Counted from the stretch's first letter, positions 33,501-49,720 are shown. The stretch is 64,000 nt of DNA from an uncultured Planctomycetia bacterium (GCA_964421015.1 CAYQUS010000003.1:41269-105268); one strand, 5' to 3'. Numbers and translations: made by a program. The notes: generated by a model from the letters alone, not told the origin.

Positions 33501-36500
33501 AGGCGCCGGTAACGGACTTGGCACGCTTAATGGTTTTATAAGGGCCGCCAGAAAAGCCCAGGATCTCAATATCATAGAGACAGATGTTCCTTCTGGCAAA
33601 GTTAACCTTACTCAGGACGACATAAACAAGCTCGCGGACGCTTTCAGCGCCTATCTTAAGAGGGGCAACAAGAGCGCTTTTATGTTCCATACCGCCGGAA
33701 AAGGCACACGTACGGCGCCTCTTCCCGGAGTGGAAGGCAATTCCAAACCCAATATCAAGCTTCCCGAGATGGTTGATGTAGGCGGGGTTATGCAGCCCAT
33801 GACCATACTCGAGGGTGTCATGAAGGCTATAAGCAGATATGCGGATACAAGAAAAGGCCGTCTGGGTGTTTTCTGGGGAGACCAGGTCATTATAAACCAG
33901 AACCCTGTAGGCGACGAGGCGCCCAAACATCACGTCGAGATATTCGGGCAGAACGTTCCATTGGATGAAAGCATACAGTCTTACGGTGTTCTTATAGCGG
34001 GTGACCAGCCGGGCGACGCCATGCAGAGGGAAAAGCTCCCGATGAAAGAGGTCGAGGACCTGCTCAAGGCCAGCAACAAAGGACCCGACGAGGTATATAA
34101 GAGCATAGGTTCGTTCACTATATCAAACGATTTTCTCATGGCGCTACTAAAAGACAATGTTGCGGGTTCCGAGAAGAGCCTTGAGTCCACGAAAGGCAGT
34201 CTTGATACCGACCCCGACTGGTGGCAGCCGCTTACATCGTCGCTTGACGAGTACAAGGCCATGATGGCGAAAAAGAAAAAGTCTCCGGCGGTCGCTGAAG
34301 CTCAGTGGAACAAGATGAACGCCCTTTGGAACAATTTTAACAGCCAGGGGAAGGGGAAAATAGGCGTTACCGACGTGGGTAAGGATTCGCTCTGGTGGGA
34401 TTACGGCCAGAACAAATACTACCTTAGGAACATGCAGATACTCACAGAAAAGGACACAGTCGACGGAGTTTCCTCGAGAGAATTTTTCGGTATAGACAGC
34501 TGGATAAAAGGTTCCACGCTTGGTGACGCTAACGACGTTTCCGATACAGAAAAGAGGTTCACATCCCAGGCGCTGGCGGAAGGCAGAGCTGTCGGGGCAA
34601 AAGACGGCAAGAAATATCTGGATATACAGTCTTCTGTCGTACAGAACTCTACGATAAAGAGCGGGCGCCTTAAGAACTGCGTTGTAATAGACAGCTACCT
34701 GGAGAATGTTGACGCCGAGAACGCCGTGATAATAGGAAGCACTGTGTTCAAGCTTAACGCTAAAGGCGCTCTTGTATACAATGTGGTGAATGACGAAGTT
34801 CCGGCGCTTACTGAGGGCCAGATACTGACCAACGTTTTCCATCCCACGGTCGGTCGCATACAGATGCAGATGAGGACAGATGTTTCCCGTGACGGCAGTG
34901 TCGACTGGGAACAGGAGGTTTTTGTTTACGACAATCTTTATACTTACGCCGACGTCGCAAAACTCATGGCAGAGAGCGGTATTACAATGGACGTCATAAA
35001 GATTTTAAGAGATAACGCGGCCAGGGCGCTTATTGAGAGCCGCGAAGCCAGTAATACAAGGAGCGCTAACGAACTTAAGAATGATCTGCTTACCAGCAGG
35101 AACAAAAAAGCGGGGACGCTAAAGACCAAAGCTCTTGAACTTAAATCAAAGGCCGAAGGCGTTCTCAGGGAAGACCCGAAAGGCAATGTAAGGTCCATAC
35201 TGAGGGAAGCGGGGCTTAACGAACTTTGGGCCGCCAGGGCGGAGCTCGACGAACCCGAGGCCAGAAAGATAGTAGCTTACAGCATTATGGTCACCGAGGG
35301 CAGGACCTCGATGGACGTAGCCGAATACATGGAGATGTTCGCTATGGTGCCTAACCCGGCAAACATCCGCGCGGCCGAAGAGGAACTGGTCGCCGTGAGA
35401 AAACTGGTGGAGCTCTCAAAGGTGGACCGCCGCAAGTACTACGCCCAGCAGGAACCTCTGGCTTTCGGTACAAGCGGCCTTAGGGACACAGTTGAAAGAC
35501 TTACCGATATGGAAGTTTACATAAACGCCCGTGGCTTTATCAGATATCTTATCGAGCAGGGAGAGATAGTTGACGGTGACTCTGTTGCCATAGCGGGAGA
35601 CTTGAGGCCGAGCACACCAAGGCTTATGACGGCTGTGGCCAGGGCTATAGAGGACGAGGGTCTTGCTAACGGATATTCGCTTGGAGTGGATCTTAGGGGA
35701 TTCCTGCCGTCGCCCAGCGTGGCTCTTGACGGTTTTATCGGCAAGAAACCCAGCGTTATGGTGACCGGCAGCCACATACCGGCCGACAGGAACGGAATAA
35801 AGTTCAACAAGAAGAGCGGAGAAGTTCTTAAACAGGACGAGAAAGGCATACTTTCTAAAGTCAAGGAGGCAAGGGCCGAAGAGACCGCGCTTGACTGGCA
35901 GGTAACATTGTTCGATCAGGCCGGGAAGTTTAAGGACGCCCCGGTTTATGCGCTTCAATCCGGGCAGGATGAAAGTATAGAGGTTTTCGTCAATAGGTAT
36001 ACCAGCGTTTTTGGTACGGAAGCTCTTAAGGACAAAAAAGTGTTCATATACCAGCATTCAGCTGTCGGAAGGGACATAATTTCCGACATATACAGAAAGC
36101 TGGGAGCTACTGTGATAACTCCCGGAGTAGATGAATTTGGCGGGTACATAGAAGGTAAAGAAGAAGACAACATAATACAGGTTACGTATACCGACGAAAA
36201 AACCGGTAAGGAAGTAACAGAGAATGTGAATCTTCGCAGCGAGGAGTTTGTCCCGGTGGATACGGAGAAAGTATCCAATAAGACAAAGGCCATACTCAAA
36301 GCTGTTGCCGCGAAGTACGCTCCGGACGTTATAATATCCACTGACGGAGATTCTGACAGGCCGCTTTTTGTGGACGAAGAAGGTAACTTCCTTGTTGGTG
36401 ACAAACTTGGTCTTCTTGCTGTTAAATTCATGGTGGAAAATGCTCAGAAACCCGCCATGGTGGCTTTACCGGAAAGCACTAATGAGGGAGTAGTAGCCGA

Positions 36501-39500
36501 GCTTGAAAGTATGGGGATAAAGGTGATCAAGACCAAGATAGGTTCGCCGCATGTCATAAAGGCCATGAACGACTGGACACGTCCCGGCAGGGGGCATGAG
36601 AACGACATAGTATGCGGTTGGGAAGCCAACGGAGGTTTTCTCCTGGGCAGCGACATAAAGTTGTTTGACAAAGATTTAAGGTCTCTTCCGACACGCGACG
36701 CGGTGTTCCCGACACTTTCCGGTATACTTTTGTCCGGGATAAAAGGGGTGTCAGTGAAGGAGCTTATAGAGAAGGAGACCCCGGCCGTGTATAACGGCGC
36801 CGGTGTTTTTGACGATTTCCGTGATAAGGACGGCAAGAAACTTACGGGTAACGCCGGGTTCGGGCTTATGAAGGAAACCATGGCGAAGTTCTCTCCCAAA
36901 CTCGAGGATCAGACGATCGTAAGGGTTAATTTTGATAAGAACACTGTTATTCGGAGAGTACGGGACGAAGAGGCAGGAGAAGAAATAGCCGACAAGTATT
37001 TCTTTGAGACAGTGGAACAGAATATAGACACTCTTAGTCCGGCGGATCTTGCTGAAATAACAAGGGTCAAGGACCTTTTTGGTAAAAACATCCTTACTAA
37101 GGAAAGAGGGTTCGAGCCTATAGCGTCCATAAGTGTTCTTGACGGTATCAAGATATTTTTCAGTAACGGCGAAATATCGCATTTCAGGCCTTCCGGGAAC
37201 GCTCCTGAGTTCAGAAATTACACGACAGCGGCGACACAGGAAAGAGCCGACGCGATGCTGGCCGTAGGACTGAAGGAGTTGGTGCCCTCTATGGTCACAG
37301 AGACATTAAACTCGCCTTCGGGAAGCACCGAGTTGCCGATATGGTCGCCCGGAAGACAGGCCGCGACGGCGACGCCGGCCTCTCCTGAAGTACAGGAAGT
37401 GGCCGATCTTTTGAGGCAGGGCTACCCGGCCATGATAAAGCCGCACAAGGAAGCCAAGGTATGGGGTGTTAATGGCATAGGAGAATATTGGTACGGCGCC
37501 GAAGCGGGAGACAAGACTTCAGTTGTTTCCGTGCGCGACGCCAATGGTAAAACGGTCGAAGCTCCGCTCAATGAGGTTTTAAGCTACGCTCCGGATGTTT
37601 TGGGCAAGGACGCGCTTGATAATTTCGGACAGATGCTGCCGCTTGTAAAGATACTTACGCCCCAGGGCAGGTTGTCGGCCCAGTTCCACGATGCCAAGAA
37701 CGAGCTATGGATAGTTACCGGGATAGATCCCAAGGTCCAGAACCCCTCTATAATACTCGGGTTCAGCAAGGCTTCTGTGGACAGGTTCGGCAGCGCGGTC
37801 AATTCTGAATATAAGAAAGCTCTGGAAAATTACGGCGAGAAGCTTAACGCTCTTATAGACGCCGCTGAAGATATTGGTATCACGCAGGCTTTCCAGGGGG
37901 ACATACTCGAAAAGGCTAAGGATTACCCCGCCATGGGAAGTTATGTGGCGGAACTCGAGTCGGCGAAAGGTGAGCTGGAATGGTTCTATAACTACAGGCC
38001 TGTTAAGGTTGGAGAGGTTATACCTGTTCCGGCCGGCACTTTACACGCTCTTGGAACAGGTGTGGAGGTAGTAGAACCGCAGATAGCCGGTCTTACGCAG
38101 TCTCTGGAAGACGGAGCTACTTATCCGGTGAGGTACTATTTCCCGGGGCATGAAAGGCCCGGCGCTCAGAAACAGCTGGATATAGACAGGGTAGGAGAGA
38201 TGATACCCGCTGTGGCGGTAGAGACCAGCCCGGAAATTATTTCCGAACAGCCGAACGGTGAAAAGGTCGAGAGGCTTCCGGGAAATTTCGAGTCCAAGGG
38301 GCTTGAGGTTAACAGGATAACGGTAAGAAAAGACGCCGCCTCGACCGGGACCTTCAGGATAGGCAGCATGGAGAGCATACACAATCTGGTAGTGGTCAAG
38401 GGTGAAGCTTCGGTGCTTGTGGCCGGTCAGAGGATCAAAATACCCGCCGCCAGGGCCGGAGAGCCAATGATGATGATACCGCCGACGGCGGGACAGTACA
38501 CCATAGTAGCCGATGCCGACGGTGACAGCGAGATCATTCTTACGCTGACCCCGAAAGCCGAGAAGTGGAATCTTGAGACTCCTGTTGAGAAGGGTTCCGG
38601 AGTGAGCATAAACGGCGAGATGGAGTACGGATATGAGGTGACACCCAGATTCCTGGAGTTTGAGACAATGGTCGATGTCAGGGACGAGGTGAACATACAT
38701 GCCGGGCAGAAGGCTGAAAGTTCTCCGATCATAGCCGGAAGAGCCCATAAAATAAAGGTTCTGGACGGAACGGTAGTAGTGACGCGTTCTACTGGCGAGG
38801 AAGTTGTGGTGGCCGCGGGAGAAGAGTTCCTTGTTGATGAAAACTATTCCAACGTAAGCCTTCTTGATCCGGGCCGTTATGAGATAGTCAATAGAGCCGA
38901 TCTTCCCGCGAAAGTTGAGGTTTCTTACAGCCTCACACAGGAAGAAAAAGTGGCATACGAGACCATCTCTACGCTTAAAAAACATATACCTGTCATAAAA
39001 GGCAAGAAGATAAGGGCGCATGTTCCAAACGAGATCTTCCCGAGCGGCGGTAAAACAGTGGTAGGGTCACGCCTTTGGACGCAGGAGATAATGCAGAATC
39101 TTCTTGGCCCCGACATAATTCTCGCCGGATACGATTCCGCGCTTGGTTTCAGCAGGCTCAAGACCAGCAGCGAGGACGATGTAGTGGAGATCCTTATAGC
39201 CGACAACAAGAAACTGGAAGCCGAGAAGGAAGTTAAGGGGTCGGAAGAGTTCCTCAAGAGCGTAAGGGTCCTGCCGATACCGGAGAACGCCCTTAGCCAG
39301 AAAGGCGGATGGGATTTCTGCCTCGAGGTGGTGGGTTGGTCCATGATACTTGGCGCCGTGGGTCCGGAACAGATACGCGATAAGGCCGATCTTACAAGCC
39401 CTGCCGCGGATATGCATAAGTTCCTGACGAAAGTCCTCAAGCGCCAGGTGGAAAGGGAACACCTTTTCCTCATGCTTTCTTTCAACGAAGCCAACACGTA

Positions 39501-39678
39501 TCTCAGCGGTCTTTCTGAGGACGAAAGGACAGCCATACAGGAGAAGATAGGCGATGTCAGCGATGTCGTGACATGGATGAAGAACCTTGTTAAGAACATA
39601 TTGTTCCAGATGCCGATAAGGCCGTTTGACCCTGCGGACACGCTCCGTCAGAGGCTCAAAGTAATGTGGTCGGCATAA
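30547..39678 (+). CDS. Giant 3043 aa exported protein. Signal peptide, Tiki/TraB-like N-domain paralogous to previous gene, HExxH motif, then fused sugar-1-phosphate nucleotidyltransferase (fucose/mannose-1-P guanylyltransferase-like with left-handed beta-helix) + phosphoglucomutase/phosphomannomutase + type-I phosphomannose isomerase (cupin), ~330 aa C-terminal unknown region
   Basis: RBS aagggga + ATG 30547. Consensus promoter TTGACT-N17-TATAAT at 30390-30418. 'TIVHIQDAH' (30772-30798) and 'GGFHTRG' (~31975-31995) parallel the previous gene. 'HELAH' at ~32950-32975. 'DVVIVVSS', 'FMFHTAGKGTRTAPL' (33680-33725), LbH 'RLKNCVVIDSYLENVDAENAVIIGS' (34660-34800). 'FGTSGLRD' (35464), 'TGSHIPADRNGIKF' (35761), 'DGDSDRPL' (36343) mark a phosphohexomutase. 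'QFHDAKNELWIVT' (37681) and 'PVPAGTLHALGTGVEVVEPQ' (38041) mark PMI type I. Confidence 0.8.
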   Translation: MMSLKIKNSFLGKVSAIFLIAAFSFYNCDISSAVTQAEIKSPGSASDNSVLSVEDIGIAIDAGTIRSKFAGQTGKTIVHIQDAHCNFEAQSNISRILEQLSRDSGIAMISVEGAEGTVDTAWFRAFPDAEIRREVATYFMKKGEITGAEFFSINSDYNGTIFGAETRDYYVQNLRAFLDMYPYKEAILSYFNDLKSAGEKLKSIIYPPKLRELDRNAHNFESKEMDLSKYAEYLVKASAENGVDTAGYANFKKLTDTLEYEKKIDFDVVDGERARYIDALSKMLSKEEMADLVAESIKFKKGYIKAVDFYSHLRDLAKAHDIPMMQEYPNLFYYYIYSKIYDGIDIEGLFREIDLVERAVKKKLIKDETQDKLDKLSEKVEKLIGLVNIELTNDDYDRFRKIADAFTLDDVVSFYDGMAGRYNLDFSLGEVPSVVRENMPKMVDFYEIAIKRDMALVENTLAQMEREGKDRSVLIAGGFHTRGMADILEKKGVSYVVVTPKITKDVESPYIQVLTNQRTSIEDIITESAMPGTKNENVSAGENAGGLLSPLLRFGWGITMLLDDNQKALLQSVSDELGKVDGGAKFEDAVKESFRTTVRMMADRWLSTVKSNMVERLGMDEDKAEEEFLKFANDDSLWAMLQSVYVGKYDDYFRSVNRVASPAVKAQIVLAFSEYRNGYLARGEIGEGDGAAQSPGRQKAGDRVLKDNDEIKNFDQIIRFSFDSGKANEEAFRVSGVFGPEIDGKFRFFAHDGLNSSLETAGLPANVHPGRGGEAKMHQAYQAHMDKYVFDNLTDAQRTTLARHELAHLVIANAEDIAYKERKDYKTRGEVELTIEGRLGRQAFNTWKMWEKFVEREFSGNFQRYKDRALSEQEMETLAELQERFVNSLPNSDVTGVVARMNAISEAKKASDQKALRETLRKHAKEMSTSVADEKGPDVVIVVSSTDDLADFWQKRLTWDGLHGSGAVVKKSSVVLSVSETNWTKGAGNGLGTLNGFIRAARKAQDLNIIETDVPSGKVNLTQDDINKLADAFSAYLKRGNKSAFMFHTAGKGTRTAPLPGVEGNSKPNIKLPEMVDVGGVMQPMTILEGVMKAISRYADTRKGRLGVFWGDQVIINQNPVGDEAPKHHVEIFGQNVPLDESIQSYGVLIAGDQPGDAMQREKLPMKEVEDLLKASNKGPDEVYKSIGSFTISNDFLMALLKDNVAGSEKSLESTKGSLDTDPDWWQPLTSSLDEYKAMMAKKKKSPAVAEAQWNKMNALWNNFNSQGKGKIGVTDVGKDSLWWDYGQNKYYLRNMQILTEKDTVDGVSSREFFGIDSWIKGSTLGDANDVSDTEKRFTSQALAEGRAVGAKDGKKYLDIQSSVVQNSTIKSGRLKNCVVIDSYLENVDAENAVIIGSTVFKLNAKGALVYNVVNDEVPALTEGQILTNVFHPTVGRIQMQMRTDVSRDGSVDWEQEVFVYDNLYTYADVAKLMAESGITMDVIKILRDNAARALIESREASNTRSANELKNDLLTSRNKKAGTLKTKALELKSKAEGVLREDPKGNVRSILREAGLNELWAARAELDEPEARKIVAYSIMVTEGRTSMDVAEYMEMFAMVPNPANIRAAEEELVAVRKLVELSKVDRRKYYAQQEPLAFGTSGLRDTVERLTDMEVYINARGFIRYLIEQGEIVDGDSVAIAGDLRPSTPRLMTAVARAIEDEGLANGYSLGVDLRGFLPSPSVALDGFIGKKPSVMVTGSHIPADRNGIKFNKKSGEVLKQDEKGILSKVKEARAEETALDWQVTLFDQAGKFKDAPVYALQSGQDESIEVFVNRYTSVFGTEALKDKKVFIYQHSAVGRDIISDIYRKLGATVITPGVDEFGGYIEGKEEDNIIQVTYTDEKTGKEVTENVNLRSEEFVPVDTEKVSNKTKAILKAVAAKYAPDVIISTDGDSDRPLFVDEEGNFLVGDKLGLLAVKFMVENAQKPAMVALPESTNEGVVAELESMGIKVIKTKIGSPHVIKAMNDWTRPGRGHENDIVCGWEANGGFLLGSDIKLFDKDLRSLPTRDAVFPTLSGILLSGIKGVSVKELIEKETPAVYNGAGVFDDFRDKDGKKLTGNAGFGLMKETMAKFSPKLEDQTIVRVNFDKNTVIRRVRDEEAGEEIADKYFFETVEQNIDTLSPADLAEITRVKDLFGKNILTKERGFEPIASISVLDGIKIFFSNGEISHFRPSGNAPEFRNYTTAATQERADAMLAVGLKELVPSMVTETLNSPSGSTELPIWSPGRQAATATPASPEVQEVADLLRQGYPAMIKPHKEAKVWGVNGIGEYWYGAEAGDKTSVVSVRDANGKTVEAPLNEVLSYAPDVLGKDALDNFGQMLPLVKILTPQGRLSAQFHDAKNELWIVTGIDPKVQNPSIILGFSKASVDRFGSAVNSEYKKALENYGEKLNALIDAAEDIGITQAFQGDILEKAKDYPAMGSYVAELESAKGELEWFYNYRPVKVGEVIPVPAGTLHALGTGVEVVEPQIAGLTQSLEDGATYPVRYYFPGHERPGAQKQLDIDRVGEMIPAVAVETSPEIISEQPNGEKVERLPGNFESKGLEVNRITVRKDAASTGTFRIGSMESIHNLVVVKGEASVLVAGQRIKIPAARAGEPMMMIPPTAGQYTIVADADGDSEIILTLTPKAEKWNLETPVEKGSGVSINGEMEYGYEVTPRFLEFETMVDVRDEVNIHAGQKAESSPIIAGRAHKIKVLDGTVVVTRSTGEEVVVAAGEEFLVDENYSNVSLLDPGRYEIVNRADLPAKVEVSYSLTQEEKVAYETISTLKKHIPVIKGKKIRAHVPNEIFPSGGKTVVGSRLWTQEIMQNLLGPDIILAGYDSALGFSRLKTSSEDDVVEILIADNKKLEAEKEVKGSEEFLKSVRVLPIPENALSQKGGWDFCLEVVGWSMILGAVGPEQIRDKADLTSPAADMHKFLTKVLKRQVEREHLFLMLSFNEANTYLSGLSEDERTAIQEKIGDVSDVVTWMKNLVKNILFQMPIRPFDPADTLRQRLKVMWSA

Positions 39679-39687
39679 GGATATAAA

Positions 39688-39730
39688 ACACATTAGTGCC
39701 AGGCACCTATGGTGCCTGGCACTAATGTGT
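39688..39730. repeat. Palindrome copy 3, identical to copy 1, 10 nt after the ORF3 stop
   Basis: acacattagtgccaggcacctatggtgcctggcactaatgtgt followed by aaaaaagttag. Confidence 0.9.
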
Positions 39731-39844
39731 AAAAAAGTTAGTTGGTTCCGGTCCCGTAAAAAGGTCCGGACATACAGAGAGAGCGTTAAGCCAAACCACC
39801 TCCCCCTCGGCAAGGCAAGCTCTCTCTGTTTTTTTTGATAAGAG

Positions 39845-39957
39845 TTTACTTTTGTCGTTCTGAGCCGAATCCACTTTTGTCATCCTGAGCCGAATCCACT
39901 TTTGTCATCCTGAGCCGAATCCACTTTTGTCATCCTGAGCCGGCAGGCGAAGGATCT
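39845..39957. repeat. Tandem repeat, 25-bp unit x ~4 (tccacttttgtcatcctgagccgaa)
   Basis: Units at 39845, 39870, 39895 and 39920. The last unit degenerates into gtcatcctgagccggcaggcgaaggatc, a member of the dispersed 'gtcatcctga..gaaggatc' motif family. Confidence 0.85.
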
Positions 39958-40040
39958 GGTCAATTATTGCCTGGCGTTATTGTCTTTCACCCGGCACAAA
40001 ATGGTTGGAAAAATCGGGGGGTTGTCGTACAATTAGCGGG

Positions 40041-41699
40041 ATGGAAGCTGAAAAAAATATTAAAAAAGCCGATTTTGGCGTTCTTGCCGGTATAGAGGAG
40101 ATGTTAAGCGCTCCGGACCTGGGTATAGGGCCTGATGTTGTAATAGTGGTCAGTTCCTGCGAGGACGGCGCGTCTTTCTGGCAAAAGAGGCTCACCGGGG
40201 CGGACGGAGTGCATGGTTCGGGAGGCATAGTAAAGCCTTCCGCCGTAGTCCTTTCCGTGAGCGAGTCCAACTGGCATGGGTCCGCCGGCAACGCTCTTGG
40301 GACGATAAACGCCTTTTATGAAGCCGGTCGTATGGCCATGGAGCTCGGCCTTGTGCGGCCCTCAGGCGACGACATAGACCGGATCTTCAGTATTTTCTCG
40401 AATTTTTTAAAGGATAAAAGCGCTTTCATGTTCCATACCGCAGGCAAAGGAACAAGGTTGTCACCTCTTACGGCTGCGGAACATAATTCCAAGTCCAGAA
40501 TAAAGCTTCCTGGCATGGTACACACAAGAGAAGGGCAGGAGCCCATAACAGTGCTTGAGGCCGCCATCAGGGCCGCGGGAATATGCGCGCCCACAAGAGA
40601 AGGCCGCCTTTCGGTTTTCTGGGGAGACCAGATACTCCTCAACGAGCGCAATGTGAGGTCGGACAATACACACCATATAGAAATATTCGCTCAGCCTACG
40701 GAACTCGACGAAAGTATTAGGTCTTACGGGGTCATAATACCCTCTGGCGCTGGAGAGTGCAGACTTCGCGAAAAACTGCGCCCGGCTCTGATAAAGAAAT
40801 TATTCCCTGACGCGGCAGGAAATATATACAGGAGCATAGGATCATTCAGCATCACGCTTGAGGCCTTTGGAGCTTTCGCCGCGTCCGAGAAGAAAGCCGC
40901 TATTATGAGAAGCGGAGAGCTTAATACCGACAGCGGCTGGTGGCAGGCCCTTACTTCGGAGATGGAAGAGTATGTGGATCTACTTTCCGACAAGGGGCTT
41001 TCCCGGGCTAAGGCCGAGAAAAGATGGAAAAAGACCAGGAAAGTCAGAGATCAGCTCGTATCTGCCGGTAAAAACGTTTCGCCCAGAAAAGAGTTGATAG
41101 GATTCGTAGATACCGGGGCAGGTTCTCTCTGGATAGACTGCGGCCGATCTTCCAGTCTTTTTGAAAATATGCTTCTTTTGACCAAAAACACGCCCGAGGC
41201 CGTAGCGGCCAGGAAATTTTTCGGCCTTGACCGGGAATTTCAGGTTTCGTCGGATGCGCGCGGATTAATTTCGGAGAATTCGGCGGTAATAGCTTCCAAG
41301 GTAGGACGAGGCCGTCTCAAGAACTGCGTGGTGGTGGCCAGCGACATAGCGGAAGCGGAAGCCGAGGATTCGGTGATAATAGGGAGCGTTGTAACAAGGC
41401 TTAATGCCGGTTCCGCGCTGTGTTACAATGTTGTTTCCTCCCGGGAAAAACTGGGCAAAGGTGATGTGGCAGTTAATGTTTTCCATCCCGACAGGGGGCG
41501 GATAGTAATGAAGACCCACGTAACAAGGGACGGACAGGAGGATTGGGCCAAAAAGGTCAGGATCGGGGAGAACAGTTTTTCTTACCCGGAACTATCCGAT
41601 CTTGTAGGGGGAGTTTCCGAGGAAGATATAAAAAAAGCCAGGATGTCGGCCGTTAAGGCCGTTAAAAAGGAAAGGAAGAACAATGCAGAACACTCTTAA
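40041..41699 (+). CDS. Sugar-1-phosphate nucleotidyltransferase-like protein (fucose/mannose-1-P guanylyltransferase family). Stand-alone paralog of the nucleotidyltransferase segment of the 3043 aa giant protein
   Basis: Aligns residue-by-residue with ORF3 ('PDVVIVVSSCEDGASFWQKRL', 'AFMFHTAGKGTRLSPLT', 'RLSVFWGDQ', 'RLKNCVVVASD'). ATG 40041 (MEAEKNIKK) preferred over the ORF-track TTG 40005 (no RBS). Stop TAA 41697-41699 overlaps the next gene. Confidence 0.65.
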   Translation: MEAEKNIKKADFGVLAGIEEMLSAPDLGIGPDVVIVVSSCEDGASFWQKRLTGADGVHGSGGIVKPSAVVLSVSESNWHGSAGNALGTINAFYEAGRMAMELGLVRPSGDDIDRIFSIFSNFLKDKSAFMFHTAGKGTRLSPLTAAEHNSKSRIKLPGMVHTREGQEPITVLEAAIRAAGICAPTREGRLSVFWGDQILLNERNVRSDNTHHIEIFAQPTELDESIRSYGVIIPSGAGECRLREKLRPALIKKLFPDAAGNIYRSIGSFSITLEAFGAFAASEKKAAIMRSGELNTDSGWWQALTSEMEEYVDLLSDKGLSRAKAEKRWKKTRKVRDQLVSAGKNVSPRKELIGFVDTGAGSLWIDCGRSSSLFENMLLLTKNTPEAVAARKFFGLDREFQVSSDARGLISENSAVIASKVGRGRLKNCVVVASDIAEAEAEDSVIIGSVVTRLNAGSALCYNVVSSREKLGKGDVAVNVFHPDRGRIVMKTHVTRDGQEDWAKKVRIGENSFSYPELSDLVGGVSEEDIKKARMSAVKAVKKERKNNAEHS

Positions 41700-44529
41700 A
41701 TTCGGCACAAGCGGACTGAGGGATACCGTGACAAATATGACCGACCGCGAATGCTACATAAACACGGCCGGTTTCATAAGTTTTCTTAAAGAAAGAGGGG
41801 AGATCTCCGGAGAGAAATCCGCTATCGCTATAGCGGGTGACCTGAGAAGTTCGACTCCCAGGATAATGGCCGCGGTAGCCGCGGCCGCGAGGGATTCCGG
41901 ATGCGCGGTAGTTTCGTGCGGCAACCTTCCTTCCCCGGCGCTTGCCTATTTTGCCATGAGCAGAGATCTGCCCAGTGTGATGGTTACCGGCAGTCATATA
42001 CCGGATGACCGCAACGGGATAAAATTCACGAAGGTTTCCGGAGAGGTGCTAAAGACCGACGAACAGGATATATTGCGGAATGTTTCAGCTGTCAGGCAGA
42101 GAGCGGAAAAAGATCCCCGCGTTAAAGCCCTTTTCGGCGCGACAGGCATGTTCATCTCATCGCCTGAACCGGCAGGCAGGGAAGCGGAGAAAGAAGCCTT
42201 GAAGCTTTACCGTGAAAGGTACACCGGGGTTTTCCCGGCAGACAGTCTTAAGGGGCTAAAAGTTGTTTTTTATGAACATTCGGCGGTAGGCCGGGACATT
42301 ATCGCGGAGATACTCGAGAAACTGGGGGCGACACTTATTCGTGTGTCGAGATCCGACAAGTTCGTTCCGGTGGATACCGAAAAAATATCAAAAGAGACCC
42401 TGGAGCTTCTTAAGAAATGGTCTTCGGAGCACAGGCCTTTCGCTATAGTTTCTACCGACGGAGATTCCGACAGGCCCCTTGTCGCAGATGAGAAGGGGGC
42501 GTTCATACCAGGTGATAAACTGGGCGCTCTGGCAGCCATGTACCTTAACCCTGATTTCGCGGCGGTGCCGGTGAGCGCCAATGACGCCGTGGTAAGCGCT
42601 CTTACCTCCAGAGGAGTTAAAGTTAAACAGACGCGGATAGGTTCCCCATATGTGGTAAAAGCCATGATAGACGAGATGGCTACTTCTCCATCCTCCAAAA
42701 CAGTAAGCTGGGAATCCAATGGCGGATTTCTTCTGGGTAGCGCCTGGGTTTTCGCCGGGAAAAAACTGAAGGAACTTCCGACAAGGGACGCGGTATTGCC
42801 GATAGTGACTCTTCTTATGATGGCAAAAAAACGGGGGAAGGCAATATCTGAGATAGTAAGCGAGGATATGCCCGCAAGATATACCGACGCCGGAGTGGCC
42901 GACAACGGAACTCCGGGATGTGAGAAATATACCGCAGAGATGGGGACGCGTATAATAAACGCTTTTTCGCCGGCGAGAAAAGATATCTTGGAGGCCGTGT
43001 TCTCCAAGGGTGAAGTAAAGGTCCCGGGAGCGGATATAAGCCAGGCGGACAAAGAGAACCTAAAGGCGATAAAAGACAGGTTGTCGTCATATTTTGACCG
43101 GTCGAAAGGGTTTGGAGAAATAAAGAACATTAACTTCGTGGACGGGATAAGGGTCTATTTCGAGGGAGGGGATGTGGTGCACCTGCGCCCTTCGGGCAAC
43201 GCCCCGGAATTCAGGTTATATGCCACGGCGGACACCACCGAAAGGGCCGGCGCGATAGTTTCTCTTAAGGACAAGATCCTTCCTCTCGTAATAAAGGACA
43301 TTTCTGTTCCCGGTGCAAGGTCGGTAGGGGCCATGGCGTCTTCCGAATGCGAACTCGACGAGGAAATAGTCTCTTCGGTTTCAAGAGGCGAACCTTTCCT
43401 GATAGAGCCGTACAGGGAGCCCAAGGTATGGGGAGTTGGCGGCATCGGGGAGTACTGGTATGGTCCGGGGGACGAGGAAAAAAGTTCGCTGGCCGTAATA
43501 GCCGGTAAAAAAGTCCTTATGGGGGTGCTTGTTTCTTCTTTGCCGGAAGATGTTCTCGGAGGGAAGGTCATAGAGAAATTCGGGGTTATGGCTCCGCTTG
43601 TAAAGATACTGACCCCTAAAGGGAGGCTCTCGGTACAGTTCCATGACGCCAAGAACGAACTTTGGATAGTGACCTCATGCGACAACTCTCTGGTTGAAGG
43701 CGGCAAGAATTGGATAATACTGGGATTCAGCGCCGCATCGGTGGAAAAGTACGGAAATAAGGTCACGGAACATTACGGCAAAGCTCTGGGGGTTTACGGA
43801 AAAACTCTCAACGCGATGATATCCGCCATCGAAGCCTGCGGACAGGAGAAAAAAGATCTTTTGAAAGAGACCAGAGATGTTCTCTCCGCCGCCGAAAAGG
43901 TCAAATCGGAAAGTCCCGCCGTGGCCGGGGCGCTCAAGGATTTTTTAAAGGCAAAAAGTGACGTGGAGTATTTTTACTCCTATAGGCAGGTTAACGCTGG
44001 TGACGTTATCCCGGTACCGTCAGGTACTTTGCATGCCATGGGTCCGGGTGTTTATGTTATAGAACCCCAGATAGCCGGTCCTACCCAGTCGCTCGAAGAC
44101 GGGACCACGTATCCGGTAAGGTATTATTTCCCGGGGTATCAGAGAGAGGACGCCGTGAAAAGACTGGATATAGACAGAGTAGGGGAAATGCGGCCCGAAG
44201 TTACCACGGACATACGTCCCGAGACAGTCGAAAAGGGCGAGGGTTACATCGTTGACAGGCTACCCGGAGACTTTGCCGACAAGGGGCTTGAAGCCCACAG
44301 AATAAAGTTTGTAACTAAAGCCTTTATAAGGAGATGCAACAACGACAGCATGCACAGTTTTTCCGCCACAATGGGGGAAGCTTTCGTGGATTTCTCAGGT
44401 AAAAGCTACGCTATACCAAAAGCCGCTCCGGGCGCTTCGATGCTTATAGTCCCGGCCTCTTGCGGAGAATATGTCTTAAGAGCCGGTACCGGAGCCGAAA
44501 TAATAGATACTTTTACCCCGGTTTCTTAG
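41683..44529 (+). CDS. Bifunctional phosphomannomutase/phosphoglucomutase fused to a type-I phosphomannose-isomerase (cupin) domain. Paralog of the C-terminal half of the 3043 aa giant protein
   Basis: RBS aaggaaagga + ATG 41683, 17-nt overlap with the upstream gene. 'FGTSGLRDTV' (41698), 'TGSHIPDDRNGIKF' (41984), 'DGDSDRPL' (42457), 'RPSGNAPEFR'. PMI-like 'VQFHDAKNELWIVT' (43636), 'PVPSGTLHAMGPGVYVIEPQ' (~44000), 'YPVRYYFPGY'. Confidence 0.8.
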   Translation: MQNTLKFGTSGLRDTVTNMTDRECYINTAGFISFLKERGEISGEKSAIAIAGDLRSSTPRIMAAVAAAARDSGCAVVSCGNLPSPALAYFAMSRDLPSVMVTGSHIPDDRNGIKFTKVSGEVLKTDEQDILRNVSAVRQRAEKDPRVKALFGATGMFISSPEPAGREAEKEALKLYRERYTGVFPADSLKGLKVVFYEHSAVGRDIIAEILEKLGATLIRVSRSDKFVPVDTEKISKETLELLKKWSSEHRPFAIVSTDGDSDRPLVADEKGAFIPGDKLGALAAMYLNPDFAAVPVSANDAVVSALTSRGVKVKQTRIGSPYVVKAMIDEMATSPSSKTVSWESNGGFLLGSAWVFAGKKLKELPTRDAVLPIVTLLMMAKKRGKAISEIVSEDMPARYTDAGVADNGTPGCEKYTAEMGTRIINAFSPARKDILEAVFSKGEVKVPGADISQADKENLKAIKDRLSSYFDRSKGFGEIKNINFVDGIRVYFEGGDVVHLRPSGNAPEFRLYATADTTERAGAIVSLKDKILPLVIKDISVPGARSVGAMASSECELDEEIVSSVSRGEPFLIEPYREPKVWGVGGIGEYWYGPGDEEKSSLAVIAGKKVLMGVLVSSLPEDVLGGKVIEKFGVMAPLVKILTPKGRLSVQFHDAKNELWIVTSCDNSLVEGGKNWIILGFSAASVEKYGNKVTEHYGKALGVYGKTLNAMISAIEACGQEKKDLLKETRDVLSAAEKVKSESPAVAGALKDFLKAKSDVEYFYSYRQVNAGDVIPVPSGTLHAMGPGVYVIEPQIAGPTQSLEDGTTYPVRYYFPGYQREDAVKRLDIDRVGEMRPEVTTDIRPETVEKGEGYIVDRLPGDFADKGLEAHRIKFVTKAFIRRCNNDSMHSFSATMGEAFVDFSGKSYAIPKAAPGASMLIVPASCGEYVLRAGTGAEIIDTFTPVS

Positions 44530-44603: not shown

Positions 44604-44651
44604 AATAGGGCTAACTATCATACATTTGAAAAGCGTAAAAGAAGGTAGTTG

Positions 44652-45560
44652 ATGGCCGGTAATAATTTTTTGAAGAAGCTCAATCAGCAGAAGATGTCCT
44701 ATCTTTTTATAGCGGTTCCATTTACGCTTTTTTTCGTATTCCAGGTGGCTCCGGTCGCGATATCTTTTCTGTGGTCCTTCACTGAGTACAATGTCATACA
44801 ACCACCCAAATTCATAGGTCTCAGCAATTACAGGCAGCTTCTTTTCAGCGATCCTCTTTTTTGGAAGGCTCTCAAGAATACGGCGATATATGTGGCGGGT
44901 GTTGTGCCTCTGGGGGTTTCTCTTTCCCTTCTTCTTGCAGTGGCCATAGACCAGAAGATCAAGTTCAAGAACTTTTTTAAATCGGTGTTCTTTCTGCCCA
45001 CAGTCACGGCCATAGTGGCTGTTTCGGTCATATGGAAATGGCTTTATGCGGGGGAGAAGTACGGTCTTTTGAATTTTTTTCTGATAAAGCTCGGGTTTGA
45101 ACCTTTGGACTGGCTGACAAGCCCGGAATGGATACTGCCCGCCATAATGATAATGTCCATATGGGCCGGGCTTGGGTACAGCATGATACTGTTTCTTGCC
45201 GGTCTGCAGACTATTCCACACTCGATGTACGAGGCGGCCGAGATAGACGGAGCCGGGTTCTGGCACAGGTTTGGTCACATAACGCTGCCGCTTCTAAGGC
45301 CCACTATAGTTTTCGTTTCCATAATGAGCTTTATCTCCAGTTTTCAGGTTTTTGAACAGGTGTACATAATGACGGGAGGACAGGGCGGGGTAGGTGGGGT
45401 GCTCAATTCCGCGCTCACGATCGTTTCATATCTTTACGACAAAGGTTTTGTGAAATTTCAGATGGGCTACGCTTCGGCTATCGCTTATGTCATCTTCGCG
45501 GTGGTTTTTGCCGTCACGGTGATGAACAAACGTTTTATGAGAGCTAACTTTGACTACTGA
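44652..45560 (+). CDS. ABC sugar transporter permease (MalF/UgpA-type, binding-protein-dependent inner-membrane component)
   Basis: EAA-like motif 'EAAEIDGAGFWHRFGHITLPLLRPT' with 6 predicted TM helices. RBS gaagg. The ORF track begins at TTG 44649 but the adjacent ATG 44652 is preferred. Promoter TTGACA-N17-TAAAAT at 44575-44603. Confidence 0.8.
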   Translation: MAGNNFLKKLNQQKMSYLFIAVPFTLFFVFQVAPVAISFLWSFTEYNVIQPPKFIGLSNYRQLLFSDPLFWKALKNTAIYVAGVVPLGVSLSLLLAVAIDQKIKFKNFFKSVFFLPTVTAIVAVSVIWKWLYAGEKYGLLNFFLIKLGFEPLDWLTSPEWILPAIMIMSIWAGLGYSMILFLAGLQTIPHSMYEAAEIDGAGFWHRFGHITLPLLRPTIVFVSIMSFISSFQVFEQVYIMTGGQGGVGGVLNSALTIVSYLYDKGFVKFQMGYASAIAYVIFAVVFAVTVMNKRFMRANFDY

Positions 45561-45573
45561 TTGATGGAGAGTT

Positions 45574-46422
45574 ATGCTGCCTAATGCCATAGAACACAAA
45601 GAGACCTGGGGAGTAAAAGCGATGATATACGCTTTTCTTATAGCCGGAGCCGTTACCATGGCTCTGCCCTATGTCTGGATGTTCGTAACTTCCATAAAAC
45701 CGCTCGATGAGATACAGGCTTACCCTCCAAGTTTTCTGGTAAAGAACCCGACCTTGGAGCCGTATAAGGACCTTTTCAAAATGATCCCAATGGGAAGGTA
45801 TATACTGAATAGCCTCTTTGTGGCCGGGGCTATAACGCTTTTCAATGTGTTCGCGACATCGCTTGCCGGGTACGCTTTCGCCAAACACAATTTCTGGGGC
45901 AGGGACAATCTGTTCCTGCTTCTCATAGGGTCTCTTATGGTGCCATGGCAGGTCAACGTGATACCAGGTTTTATCATCGCCAAACATCTGGGATGGCTGA
46001 ACAGTTACCTGGGCCTTATAATACCTCCTATGGCGTGCTGCGCTTTCGGTATTTTCCTGAGCCGGCAGTACATATACAGCATACCCAACGACCTTATAGA
46101 CGCGGCCCGGATAGACGGCTGCGGGGAGTTCACTATATACCTCAGGGTGGTCCTTCCCCTGATTAAGCCGGTAATAGCCACCATAGCCATATTCACTTTT
46201 CTTCAGCAGTGGAACAATTTCGTCTGGCCGCTTGTCATAATACACGCGGGCGAGATGAGGACCCTGCCTCTTGCCCTGGCGGTCCTTACGGGGCAGTTCG
46301 GAGCGAATTTCGGTATGGTCATGGCCGGAGCGGTCGTGGCTACGCTGCCTATACTGGCGGTGTACCTGGCTTTCCAGAAATATGTGATAAGAGGTATTGC
46401 AATGATCGGGATAAAAGGGTAA
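45574..46422 (+). CDS. ABC sugar transporter permease (MalG/UgpE-type)
   Basis: 'DAARIDGCGEFTIYLRVVLPLIKPV' EAA motif, multiple TM helices. Starts 13 nt after the previous stop with RBS gatggagag. Confidence 0.8.
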   Translation: MLPNAIEHKETWGVKAMIYAFLIAGAVTMALPYVWMFVTSIKPLDEIQAYPPSFLVKNPTLEPYKDLFKMIPMGRYILNSLFVAGAITLFNVFATSLAGYAFAKHNFWGRDNLFLLLIGSLMVPWQVNVIPGFIIAKHLGWLNSYLGLIIPPMACCAFGIFLSRQYIYSIPNDLIDAARIDGCGEFTIYLRVVLPLIKPVIATIAIFTFLQQWNNFVWPLVIIHAGEMRTLPLALAVLTGQFGANFGMVMAGAVVATLPILAVYLAFQKYVIRGIAMIGIKG

Positions 46423-46462
46423 AATTCGCTAACGCTCGTCTAACGGAACGGAAGGAAGGATA

Positions 46463-48142
46463 ATGTCGAAAAAGATGCGAAGGAACACCGGTGTTTTTCT
46501 CGGGTTTTTGTTTATGTGTTTTTTAGCGGTTTCCGGTTGCGGCGGAGCCAAGGGGACAGATAGCGCCAAAGACGCTAAAACGGTTCCCGCGCAGGTTTCA
46601 CAGCCGGCAAGGCAAACCGCCAAAGAAGCCGACATAAAGACCGTTCAGGTAGCCGCGGATGATACTTTGGCCTATATAAAGGCCGTTGCGGCCGAGGCTT
46701 CGAGTTTCGACCAGACCCCGGACTGGGCCCCTGATCCCAATCCGATGAACGCTTACGACGGAGACATGCTTACCAGGTGGTCAAGCGATTACCACGAAGG
46801 GCCCCAGTGGATATATTTCGATCTTGGGAAAGAAAGCGTAGTGTCGAACGTCATCATAAGATGGGAAAGGGCTTACGCTACCGACTACAAGATATTGGCC
46901 TCCAATGACGGCGAATCGTGGAAAGAGGTCTATCACGAGACTGCCGGCAACGGCGGCTCGGACGATATAAGTTTCGCTCCTGTAAAATGCCGTTACATCA
47001 AGATGCTGGGGCTTGGCCGTGTCAACGAGGACTGGGGTATTTCCGTATGGGAAACCGAGATATACGGGCCCGGTTCCCACAATCCCCATGCCGTAAAAAC
47101 AAAAGAAGAATATCTGGGGGCGGCCGACGATACCAACAAAAGAAAAGAAGCCGATGAGGCTCTCGAGGCTATCGCCCAGGAGCCCGTGGCTTTGTCGGTC
47201 AACCCTTTCCAGAAGGGCCTGGTTTATACTTCCTGGATGGGGGAGGAGTTCCTCTCTCCCGCCTCGGACATAACCCTCGTGTATCTTAAGAACGCCGGGT
47301 ACGACTCCATAGCCATAATGGTGCCGGCATATCAGGACAGCATAGAATCAAAGGTTGTTTTTACCAACGATACCTCCGACGGAGACACTCCCACCGACGA
47401 GGCTTTGAAACACGTTATAGCTTCCTGCAGGAAGATCGGGCTTAGAGTGATGGTGAAACCCCACGTGGACCCCAGGACCAACGAGGCCAGGATAAACATA
47501 ATGCCCTCCGAAGAATGGTTCGACAGTTTTGAGGCGTTCACTCTGAGGTACGCTCGCCTTGCGGCCGAAACCGGAGCGGAAATGTTCTGCATAGGCACAG
47601 AGCTTGAAGCCACCACTTTCGAGGCCTGGACGCACAGGTGGGAAAGGCTGATAGACAAGGTAAGAGAGGTTTATAAAGGAACTCTTACTTACGCCGCCAA
47701 CTGGACAGAGTACAAAGAGGTTCCTTTCTGGAACAAACTGGACTTTGTAGGTATAGACGCGTATTTTCCCCTTTCGGGAAGTGAAGATCCATCCCAGGAA
47801 GATCTTATTTCGGCTTGGGAAAGGATAGCCGATGAGATAGGAGCCTGGAGAGAGTCCATGAAACTTACCGACAAAGGAGTGGTGCTCACGGAGATAGGAT
47901 ATCCGTCCGCCAGGGGAGCGGCTATACAGCCCTGGGCGGCTATTTCCGCGACGGAAGATCAGAAAGCCCAGGCGGAGAGCCTTAACGCTGTCTTTACGGT
48001 GTTAAGCAAGCGGCCATGGTTCCAGGGGTACTATGTGTGGCAGTATTTTCCTCAGGAAAGATGGAGCCCGCTGGGGTTCACGGTAAAAGGGAAACAGGCA
48101 GAAGGAATAATGACAAAATGGCTTAAAGGTACAGAACAATAA
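46463..48142 (+). CDS. Lipoprotein glycoside hydrolase: F5/8 type C (discoidin) carbohydrate-binding domain + clan GH-A TIM-barrel glycosidase (GH113/GH5-like, possible beta-mannanase)
   Basis: Lipobox 'LAVSGC'. Discoidin motifs 'DGDMLTRWSS..WIYFDLG..YKILASNDGESW' (46700-47080). Catalytic domain paralogous to 49721..50806 ('MVKPHVDP', 'FCIGTELE', 'VLTEIGYPSA'). Confidence 0.6.
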   Translation: MSKKMRRNTGVFLGFLFMCFLAVSGCGGAKGTDSAKDAKTVPAQVSQPARQTAKEADIKTVQVAADDTLAYIKAVAAEASSFDQTPDWAPDPNPMNAYDGDMLTRWSSDYHEGPQWIYFDLGKESVVSNVIIRWERAYATDYKILASNDGESWKEVYHETAGNGGSDDISFAPVKCRYIKMLGLGRVNEDWGISVWETEIYGPGSHNPHAVKTKEEYLGAADDTNKRKEADEALEAIAQEPVALSVNPFQKGLVYTSWMGEEFLSPASDITLVYLKNAGYDSIAIMVPAYQDSIESKVVFTNDTSDGDTPTDEALKHVIASCRKIGLRVMVKPHVDPRTNEARINIMPSEEWFDSFEAFTLRYARLAAETGAEMFCIGTELEATTFEAWTHRWERLIDKVREVYKGTLTYAANWTEYKEVPFWNKLDFVGIDAYFPLSGSEDPSQEDLISAWERIADEIGAWRESMKLTDKGVVLTEIGYPSARGAAIQPWAAISATEDQKAQAESLNAVFTVLSKRPWFQGYYVWQYFPQERWSPLGFTVKGKQAEGIMTKWLKGTEQ

Positions 48143-48162
48143 TCCAAAAGGAGGGACAAAAA

Positions 48163-48747
48163 ATGAAAAAGAGTATGTTGGTTGCGGTGATACTGTGTTT
48201 CTTTGCCGCGGGACTCTCGTTCGCGGGAGAGGATGTTCTTTTTAGTTTCGAAGGCGGCACGGAAGGATGGGAGATCCCGGATTGGGCCTATGAAAAACCG
48301 GACCATGTCCAGGAAGCCATAAACATTTCGGAAGAGTTCGCTTCTAACGGGGCCAACAGCCTTGAGGTAGAGGCTGTTTTTCCGGGCGGCAGATGGGCCG
48401 GAGCCATAGTTGAGACCATGCAGTATTTCGACTGGTCGGAATACAACAAGCTGGCCTGCGATATCTATCTTCCTGCTGACGCGCCTCTCGGGCTCAAGGC
48501 CAAGTTCATACTTACTGTGGGCGACAACTGGCAGTGGGTTGAGATGTCACGTTCCTACGATCTTAAGCCGGGCGAGTGGGTGACCGTAGAGGCGGACATA
48601 GCTCCGGGCAGTATAGACTGGCGCAGAGTCGAGGTAGGAGAGGCTTTCAGGCAGGATATCAGAAAGATAGACATAAGGGTTGAGTCTAACAATAAACCCG
48701 CTTATTCCGGACCTTTCTACATAGACAACGTAAGGGTCATAAAGTAA
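48163..48747 (+). CDS. Secreted beta-sandwich protein, putative carbohydrate-binding (CBM-like) module
   Basis: Signal peptide 'MKKSMLVAVILCFFAAGLSFA', RBS aaaggaggg. Paralog of 48776..49513 ('FPGG.W...VE..QY.D.S.Y......D.YLPADAP.GL.AK.ILTVGDNW..VEM.RS..L.PGEWVT'). Confidence 0.6.
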   Translation: MKKSMLVAVILCFFAAGLSFAGEDVLFSFEGGTEGWEIPDWAYEKPDHVQEAINISEEFASNGANSLEVEAVFPGGRWAGAIVETMQYFDWSEYNKLACDIYLPADAPLGLKAKFILTVGDNWQWVEMSRSYDLKPGEWVTVEADIAPGSIDWRRVEVGEAFRQDIRKIDIRVESNNKPAYSGPFYIDNVRVIK

Positions 48748-48775
48748 AAAATCAACGTATCAGGGAGAGGTCTTT

Positions 48776-49513: not shown

Positions 49514-49720
49514 AGCGTTCCGGAATATCTTTCCTTCCGCGAGTGAGAGCGGCGCGATATAAGCTGAGTTCACCCGCGGAAGGAAAGAGGGTTTTTATTA
49601 TGCGGTTTTGTCCCGAAATTTCTCCGAATACGAATGAAACACCGCGGGTGAACACCGCGGTTTCAGATAGATGAAATAAAACTTAAAAGAAAACGGCTCG
49701 AGCTGAAAAGGGAGAAGGCT

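Follow-up and report, generated by a model that had tools for sequence, protein, structure and literature searches.

A free gene pair and its giant-embedded counterpart: a predicted mannose-activating enzyme set in an Omnitrophota genome

The gene pair and its copy inside ORF3

The DNA considered here, a stretch of 64,000 nucleotides (nt) from an uncultured Planctomycetia bacterium (GCA_964421015.1, CAYQUS010000003.1:41269-105268) that is called below, at its full length, the window, contains three very long open reading frames (ORFs) registered by ORF scan on the plus strand (2..17329, 17802..30197 and 30547..39678; ORF1 to ORF3), and behind them two ordinary genes of the same strand, which are the subject of this study. 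Gene A (40041..41699) encodes 552 amino acids (aa) without a signal peptide and is predicted to be a sugar-1-phosphate nucleotidylyltransferase. Gene B (41683..44529, 948 aa) is assigned as a phosphomannomutase (PMM, residues ~1–545) followed by a type I phosphomannose isomerase (PMI, residues ~560–948). Both have a paralogue inside the neighbouring ORF3, a protein of 3043 aa composed of a signal-peptide-like N-terminus, a head domain O3N (~1–900), an enzymatic cassette (936–2669) and a tail O3C (~2690–3043). The phylum of the window was taken as Omnitrophota from a 100% match to P0001; here and below L-numbers denote loci of related genomes and P-numbers homologous proteins.

BLASTP aligned gene A with residues 936–1500 of ORF3 (33352..35046, plus strand; 42% identity, E 3e-124) and gene B, with both its PMM and PMI parts, with residues 1635–2669 (35449..38553, plus strand; 42% identity over 1052 columns, E 0); in ungapped aligned codons the identity is 47% and 48%, respectively. 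The segment between them, residues 1501–1634 (35047..35448, plus strand), aligned to neither A nor B. This linker of ~134 aa, which separates the A-like domain from the PMM domain and has no equivalent in the gene pair, means that ORF3 does not simply correspond to A and B read through. With the corresponding linker of L014 the identity is 51%, and no match was obtained to the linkers of 1232-aa A-PMM fusions or of other fused proteins. The embedded copy of gene B also carries insertions of roughly 20–40 aa. A preliminary description of this DNA had proposed an un-fused paralogous copy in the form of two overlapping genes, and this is borne out by the ORF layout and the BLASTP colinearity. It had placed the colinear part at ORF3 residues ~930–2560 with 45–60% identity; the colinearity stands, while the identity is lower (42%, or 47–48% without gaps) and the aligned region ends only at ~2669. 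The position 40005 with which it opened the region is the edge of a mechanical TTG ORF, and ATG 40041 is the likely start of gene A: orthologues align from residue 5–13 of the product that begins with ATG at 40041, and 40005–40033 looks like a promoter, so that the TTG is an unlikely initiation codon.

Genes A and B overlap by 17 nt (41683..41699, plus strand): the TAA stop of A occupies 41697–41699, the ATG of B lies at 41683, and B is read in the +1 frame with respect to A. Upstream of this ATG, at 41664–41679 (plus strand) and within the coding region of A, lies a purine-rich Shine-Dalgarno-like stretch AAAGGAAAGGAAG, with GGAAAGGAAG 4–13 nt upstream of the ATG in the window sequence. A paralogue split by a stop codon and restarting 17 nt upstream of it at its own ribosome-binding site and ATG, as previously described, can thus be read directly from the window. 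The two genes are separate in six assemblies (the window, L001, L002/L003, L006, L007 and L011) and overlap by 8–17 nt in five of them; the overlap is 8 nt in L001, L002 and L007 (ATGAATAA or ATGGATAA) and 11 nt in L006, and a gap of 47 nt is found in L011. At the A/PMM junction of L010 there is a gap of 4 nt, and in L004 the upstream gene is A', a member of a distantly related subfamily, which shares 19 nt with B. At the orthologous junctions the ATG of B stands 4–6 codons before the conserved LKFGTSGLRD, each time behind a purine-rich stretch, and the combination of overlap and internal Shine-Dalgarno sequence recurs in L001, L002, L006, L007 and L004. Such an arrangement of stop, start and internal Shine-Dalgarno sequence suggests that A and B are probably translationally coupled.

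Predicted activities and the operon

The labels of NTP-transferase, PMM and PMI initially attached to the three modules proved correct, with two of the three resting on predicted fold and not on profile matches. For gene A no family match was obtained in Pfam and NCBIfam even at E<=10 and E<=1, respectively, the Pfam Fucokinase family included, nor was there any match among the sequences of the PDB. Two motifs, HTAGKGTRLSPLT and VFWGDQ, support its assignment, as does the predicted fold. AGKGTRLSPLT (residues 134–144) and FWGDQ resemble signature loops of the nucleotidylyltransferase superfamily, the former its N-terminal G-x-G-T-R-L-x-P-L-T; G135, G137, R139 and P142 are invariant across 45 homologues with the ORF3 copy included, and so are the motifs AGKGTRLSPLT and FWGDQ as a whole (alignment A1). 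The embedded A domain keeps all 38 invariant columns of this alignment. The AF2 model of gene A (pLDDT 92.9) consists of an N-terminal nucleotidyltransferase domain and a C-terminal left-handed beta-helix with a ladder of beta-strands at residues 409–493. Foldseek returned 66 PDB matches at E<=1e-3, and the best 50 of the 66 are almost all enzymes of the nucleotidylyltransferase superfamily, headed by the GDP-fucose pyrophosphorylase part of FKP (9iit/9iis, E 1e-11) and followed by ADP-glucose pyrophosphorylases, GMPPA/B and RmlA. With the corresponding domain of Bacteroides fragilis FKP gene A shares the succession of nucleotidyltransferase and beta-helix, the length of ~550 aa and 580 aligned columns, but the identity is only 10–11% at a TM-score of ~0.47, and FKP is fused to a fucokinase rather than to a mutase or isomerase. 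Gene A is therefore best described as a predicted sugar-1-phosphate nucleotidylyltransferase of an uncharacterised family, as judged from its model. This family counts 1222 representatives at the 50% cluster level (E<=1e-3) and was found in Omnitrophota, Chlamydiota, Lentisphaeria, Verrucomicrobia, some archaea and protist transcriptomes. In two loci of Chlamydiae (L085, 6001–7620; L086, 6001–7554) the homologue of A stands in the conserved order M16 peptidase, HtrA-like protease, A homologue, amino-acid permease, and neither mutase nor isomerase was found near it; this synteny is conserved, yet uninformative on the substrate.

In gene B all four PGM_PMM Pfam domains (I–IV) score above gathering thresholds, and domains I–III do so in ORF3. 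The nearest solved structure by sequence is the Brucella PMM 4hjh (E 5.5e-94), which shares with gene B the phosphoserine loop TGSHIPDDRNG and, like alpha-D-phosphohexomutases in general, the four domains, but lacks the C-terminal PMI domain of ~390 aa. The loops TGSHIP, DGDSDR, WE(S/A)NGG and RPSGNAPEFR (phosphoserine, metal-, sugar- and phosphate-binding) are present both in gene B and in the ORF3 copy. The C-terminal ~390 residues stay below threshold with PF20511 (E 0.16, 12.5 bits at a cut-off of 22) and with TIGR00218 (28.3 bits at a cut-off of 116.2); precomputed PF20511 matches exist for some orthologues of gene B (P0090, P0102, P0118). The AF2 model of this region (pLDDT 92.4) has two cupin-type beta-barrels with a helical domain, and its best 17 Foldseek matches in the PDB are all type I phosphomannose isomerases, with that of B. 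subtilis in the lead (1qwr, E 2.8e-19, TM-scores 0.58/0.73) and those of Salmonella, A. fulgidus and Candida also among them. Residues Q103, H105, E110 and H235 of the PMI domain, candidate metal ligands by sequence, are invariant in 32 homologues including ORF3 (alignment A2). The block VQFHDAKNELWIVT of the gene pair corresponds to AQFHDAKNELWIVT in ORF3, and its Q, F, H, K, N, E, L and W are likewise invariant across the 32 homologues; the embedded copy keeps the invariant residues of the isomerase in general. By profile and predicted fold, gene B is a PMM fused to a type I PMI.

If these assignments are correct, the three activities would form a route in which fructose-6-phosphate and mannose-6-phosphate are interconverted by the type I PMI, mannose-6-phosphate and mannose-1-phosphate by the PMM, and mannose-1-phosphate is converted by gene A into NDP-mannose. 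Fusions of steps of this pathway are known: in type II bifunctional PMI/GDP-mannose pyrophosphorylases (AlgA, XanB, ManC-type) a small C-terminal cupin PF01050 is fused to a PF00483 nucleotidyltransferase, often with manB/algC adjacent. As in AlgA and XanB, two steps on the way from fructose-6-phosphate to GDP-mannose are here combined in one polypeptide; unlike there, the isomerase is type I by fold and is fused to the mutase rather than to the transferase. In genes A and B no match to PF00483 was obtained, and PF01050 appeared only at E 0.08, on the PMI part of gene B. A literature search for a described trifunctional enzyme combining PMI, PMM and GDP-mannose pyrophosphorylase yielded nothing relevant.

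Directly behind the pair lies an operon (44649..53366, plus strand) in which Pfam recognises two ABC permeases, a GH113 mannanase with an F5/8 type C domain, two mannan-binding CBM proteins, a second GH113, a ROK kinase/regulator and a solute-binding protein. In at least two other assemblies, L001 and L002, the A/B pair is followed by the same downstream gene order. A and B would be separately translated cytoplasmic genes heading an operon for beta-mannan utilisation. On their upstream side, the intergenic region between ORF3 and A (39688..40033, plus strand) was characterised by consensus matches only. A perfect 20-bp inverted repeat with a 3-nt loop (39688–39730) directly follows the ORF3 stop, and a second stem, CAGAGAGAGC...GCTCTCTCTG, is followed by T8 (~39776–39837); both are probably terminators parting ORF3 from the A/B operon. 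Four tandem copies of a 25-nt unit ACTTTTGTCATCCTGAGCCGAATCC (39848–39945) come next, just upstream of the promoter-like site TTGGAA-17-TACAAT (40005–40033, plus strand), of which the supposed TTG start at 40005 opens the –35 hexamer. No further copy of the 25-nt unit is present in the window (chance expectation 0), and the interval from giant to gene A lacks its core motif in L001, L002, L004, L006, L010 and L011. Since the promoter-like site ends 8 nt before the ATG of A, the mRNA of A might be leaderless or nearly so. With the hairpin, the stem and T8, the repeats and the promoter-like site in front of it, A/B appears to open a transcription unit separate from that of ORF3. An Rfam scan of the intergenic region returned nothing.

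Beyond the mannan operon (54602–57856) the window encodes a PMT_2/GT39-type mannosyltransferase-like protein, a GT2 glycosyltransferase and a YdjC-family protein, all three of them possible consumers of activated mannose; in L004 genes for YdjC and GT2 proteins stand directly after the pair. Further on, a tRNA gene (58558–58641, minus strand) and a tmRNA gene (59609–59989, plus strand; Rfam RF00023, 158.7 bits) were registered.

Arrangements in relatives and age of the duplication

The best 120 homologues of gene B comprise 64 proteins with PMM alone, 26 with PMM-PMI, 20 with A-PMM and 10 with A-PMM-PMI. Across Omnitrophota and other phyla the triad is met (slashes separating genes, hyphens joining fused parts) as A/PMM/PMI, A/PMM-PMI, A-PMM/PMI, A-PMM-PMI and as the reversed PMM-A. 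Three separate genes are found in L010, and the identical split in L083 but with A'; L013 has A-PMM/PMI, and L004 has A'/PMM-PMI. The reversed fusion was detected in five loci (Lentisphaeria, Verrucomicrobia, Phycisphaerales), with a PMI-like ORF adjoining in three of the five. That gene A acts on what the mutase produces is argued mainly from these independent fusions, which occur in both orders. Two proteins encoded apart in one genome but joined in a second are reportedly linked in function (the Rosetta-stone or fusion-fission pairs of Marcotte et al. 1999 and Enright et al. 1999), a way of reasoning that belongs, like fusion within the GDP-mannose pathway of the type II kind, to textbook knowledge. 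The present family conforms to it, as A-PMM, PMM-A, PMM-PMI and A-PMM-PMI all occur, and departs from it in that both states coexist in one genome, one of them within a far larger protein that bears a signal peptide. In L004 (5067–16424) the orthologue of ORF3 is broken into five called genes in different frames, on a low-coverage long-read contig (tag 2.27x), most likely by frameshift errors; its 855-aa 'A-PMM' protein P0021 is a fragment of this frame-broken orthologue and no natural fusion.

In other Omnitrophota the head and tail of ORF3-type proteins are conserved and the middle varies. It is A-PMM-PMI in the window, in P0297 and, with a degenerate A, in L006; A-PMM in L008, L015, L018 and L083; A only in L009 and Ca. 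Omnitrophus magneticus; PMI-like only in P0208, P0213 and P0223; and absent, leaving head and tail alone, in L002, P0212, P0214 and P0221. In the tree of head domains the giant of L002 is nested among cassette-bearing orthologues at 86–100% bootstrap, which argues for a secondary deletion as the origin of its cassette-less state. The embedded A domain scores 53–71 bits in L006, L010 and L011 compared with ~600 bits elsewhere, and wherever a locus reaches beyond the end of the giant the free genes are there, with L008 as the exception. The later changes would therefore consist in loss or decay of the embedded copy and not of the free one. The tandem order itself, giant followed by pair, is kept in L001, L002, L004, L006, L010, L011 and L083.

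The two copies parted long ago. Synonymous sites are saturated in all comparisons of paralogues and orthologues alike (NG86: pS 0.71–0.82, pN 0.18–0.37). Identity reaches 73% between the embedded A and its counterpart in L014 (pN 0.18 versus pS 0.82) and 62% between the embedded PMI and that of L001, while the free genes are 53–70% identical to their orthologues in L001, L002, L006 and L007; all these values exceed the 42–48% between the copies within the genome. In neighbour-joining trees (BLOSUM62 distances, bootstrap) the free A genes of the window, L001, L002, L006 and L007 form one clade with 100% support, and all embedded A domains fall into another (92%), which also holds L013 and the free A of L010 and L011; embedded PMM and PMI domains sit on long branches outside the free clade. 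A comparison of Ka/Ks between ORF3 and the pair, suggested in the preliminary description, gives pN far below pS but no usable ratio: synonymous divergence (dS) is saturated or undefined, and Ka/Ks between the paralogues is for this reason uninformative. The statement that both copies are under selection is nevertheless upheld by these values and by the retention of all family-invariant residues, and the selection on both is, on the same evidence, purifying. Of the 'snapshot' of accretion or fission, the paralogous un-fused copy remains, while an ongoing or recent event does not agree with the saturated pS, the closer orthologues and the separate clades. In the outgroup phyla A stands alone, and all giants have the beginning of the cassette at residue ~850–950; both facts favour capture over fission, and the simplest history would be a single old capture into the giant gene. 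According to this scheme the three-enzyme cassette was captured once, at a fixed position between head and tail of signal-peptide-bearing Omnitrophota proteins, after which the free genes were retained, whereas the embedded cassette may have evolved more rapidly in most lineages, with loss or decay of domains in some of them and outright deletion in at least one.

Alternatives, compartment and biological meaning

Taken as a whole, an ancient free gene pair, a mannose-activating triad and a cassette captured by a giant protein make up the reading that we consider quite probable. Several observations weigh against it. The trees were built by neighbour-joining only and support within the embedded clade is weak (14–48%); the free A genes of L010 and L011 lie inside the 'embedded' clade, so that at least one fission or replacement may have taken place; deletion of the cassette in L002 rests on one assembly, GCA_041667545.1. 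The embedded A is closer to that of L014 (73%) than the free A is to that of L007 (53%), and the idea that the embedded copy is less constrained therefore fails for some domains or lineages. The fold matches of gene A have low TM-scores (0.3–0.48) and mix fucose-, glucose- and mannose-specific enzymes, and its chlamydial homologue, placed between htrA and the amino-acid permease, has no sugar genes nearby.

One may ask whether the split is real at all, or whether a single-base error within 41629–41699 broke one continuous A-PMM-PMI gene. A and B do overlap in different frames, so that one indel would join them, and fully fused proteins of ~1510–1620 aa exist in other Omnitrophota. Yet these fused proteins of about 1.5 thousand aa carry the distant A' subfamily, which reaches 33–148 bits with the A profile where A itself gives ~640, and the split recurs in L001, L002/L003, L006, L007 and L011, loci that were sampled and assembled independently, with different assemblers, and that differ in the junction (overlaps of 8, 8, 11 and 8 nt and a 47-nt gap). 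With the two genes kept apart in five further independent assemblies, a sequencing error is hardly credible as the cause. A genuine but fresh event, in which the pair would be a recent fission product of the adjacent giant gene or its donor, might be suspected from the adjacency and colinearity of the copies and from the grouping of free A of L010 and L011 with embedded domains. It is very unlikely in view of the 42–48% identity and saturated synonymous sites between the copies, the closer orthologues that each of them has in other genomes (62–73% for the embedded copy in L001 and L014, 53–70% for the free one in L001, L002, L006 and L007), the separation of the two clades and the conservation of the giant-then-pair tandem in seven other loci.

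Two further alternatives concern function, and both appear rather improbable, though far less so than the preceding ones. The chemistry may be different, with A as an ADP- or UDP-glucose or GDP-fucose pyrophosphorylase, the mutase as a phosphoglucomutase, and the pair feeding glycogen or another glycan. PGM/PMM enzymes of the alpha-D-phosphohexomutase superfamily are often bispecific, and the best fold matches of A are indeed GDP-fucose and ADP-glucose pyrophosphorylases. In addition, one preprint reports PGM/PMM together with starch-synthase and GT1 domains in Omnitrophota giants (10.64898/2026.06.07.730766). Mannose is favoured by the type I PMI that is repeatedly fused to these genes or adjoins them, by their conserved place at the head of an operon with GH113 mannanases and mannan-binding CBM proteins, and by the annotation of the nearest solved mutase as a phosphomannomutase. 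The other alternative leaves enzymatic activity to the free pair and sees in the ORF3 cassette a non-catalytic relic or a module that binds sugar phosphates. Loss of the cassette in L002, the degenerate embedded A of L006, L010 and L011 and the long branches of embedded PMM and PMI agree with it, and so does the Sec-type signal peptide of the giant, since neither NTPs nor sugar phosphates would be expected in an extracytoplasmic location (the same puzzle is noted in 10.1101/2023.11.21.568195). The embedded domains of the window, on the other hand, retain every invariant residue of alignments A1 and A2 and the four active-site loops of the PMM, and the 73% identity of embedded A to that of L014, with pN of 0.18 at pS of 0.82, is hardly that of a relic.

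The two copies may differ in their compartment. A basic n-region, a hydrophobic stretch of 12–15 residues and an A-x-A-like end (for example ...NVSFA|A) characterise the N-termini of ORF3 and ORF2 and those of 71 among 84 homologues of the head domain; no further hydrophobic segments were found in ORF3 beyond its N-terminus, and no Sec-like N-terminus in gene A or gene B. From these features we infer that the giant family carries Sec-type signal peptides, in agreement with West-Roberts et al. (2023, 10.1101/2023.11.21.568195), according to whom glycolytic and PGM/PMM domains of Omnitrophota giants are predicted to be extracellular. It is conceivable, though rather doubtful, that the two copies are kept for different compartments. 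The free pair would then make or use mannose phosphates and NDP-mannose in the cytoplasm, while the ORF3 cassette, exported on a Sec-dependent carrier of head, cassette and tail, would act outside the producer, for example inside or on the surface of host or prey cells, or in a sugar-processing assembly of the periplasm.

The heads of ORF3 (30547–32100) and ORF2 (17802–19380), ~520 aa each, are homologous (26% identity, E 2e-58); their invariant residues include D82 and H84 (QDAHCN), E112-G113, R452, G477, G478 and H480 (AGGFH). The head is also met on its own, as a protein of ~520 aa predicted to be secreted, in Omnitrophota, Ratteibacteria and Elusimicrobia, and elsewhere it is fused to PFK (phosphofructokinase), UDPGP (UDP-glucose pyrophosphorylase) or metallophosphatase domains, as well as to the Glu/Leu/Phe/Val dehydrogenase (GDH)/PPDK set. 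The head-domain profile gave no match in the PDB; weak, sub-threshold Pfam matches to ChaN/Tiki in 10 of 29 members offer a lead only. ORF2 (17802–30197, 4131 aa) contains a complete Glu/Leu/Phe/Val dehydrogenase together with the N-terminal PPDK and PEP-utiliser mobile domains, and ORF1 (2–17329, >5775 aa), which runs off the window start, has helix-hairpin-helix motifs, PEP-utilizers_C and ~20 hydrophobic segments, so that PPDK-type domains are seemingly divided between ORF2 and ORF1.

Multi-enzyme giants of Omnitrophota, with PGM/PMM among their commonest domains and PPDK included, are described in two preprints (10.1101/2023.11.21.568195; 10.64898/2026.06.07.730766). The window resembles them in placing enzyme domains within very long, apparently exported proteins (nucleotidyltransferase, PMM and PMI in ORF3, GDH and PPDK in ORF2, PEP-utilizers_C in ORF1), and differs from those of the latter source in that ORF3 with its 3 thousand aa is below the cut-off of 10 thousand aa applied there. 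The passages of both sources consulted here contain no description of a free paralogous set beside a giant, of a head-cassette-tail architecture with gain and loss of the cassette, of the full fusion series or of the A family. Current understanding is not overturned by these data, as both fusion and fission of sugar-nucleotide genes and the multi-enzyme giants of the phylum were already known. What is added is an unusually full natural series for a single three-step pathway: one genome with free genes and a giant-embedded copy side by side, and relatives in which the same set is separate, fused in pairs, fully fused, reversed, degraded or deleted. By Rosetta-stone logic these fusions give a probable function to a family of ~1,200 clusters (at 50% identity) that has no Pfam entry and is spread over PVC bacteria, some archaea and protists. 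Omnitrophota giants appear to acquire and lose their enzyme content in cassettes, flanked by a head and a tail that are conserved, and, if the compartment proposal were true, the head would be a general delivery or anchoring platform for a swappable cargo of metabolic enzymes. The puzzle of a signal peptide on enzymes of cytoplasmic type, raised in the 2023 giant-gene preprint, becomes testable here, where a cytoplasmic control copy stands beside the giant.

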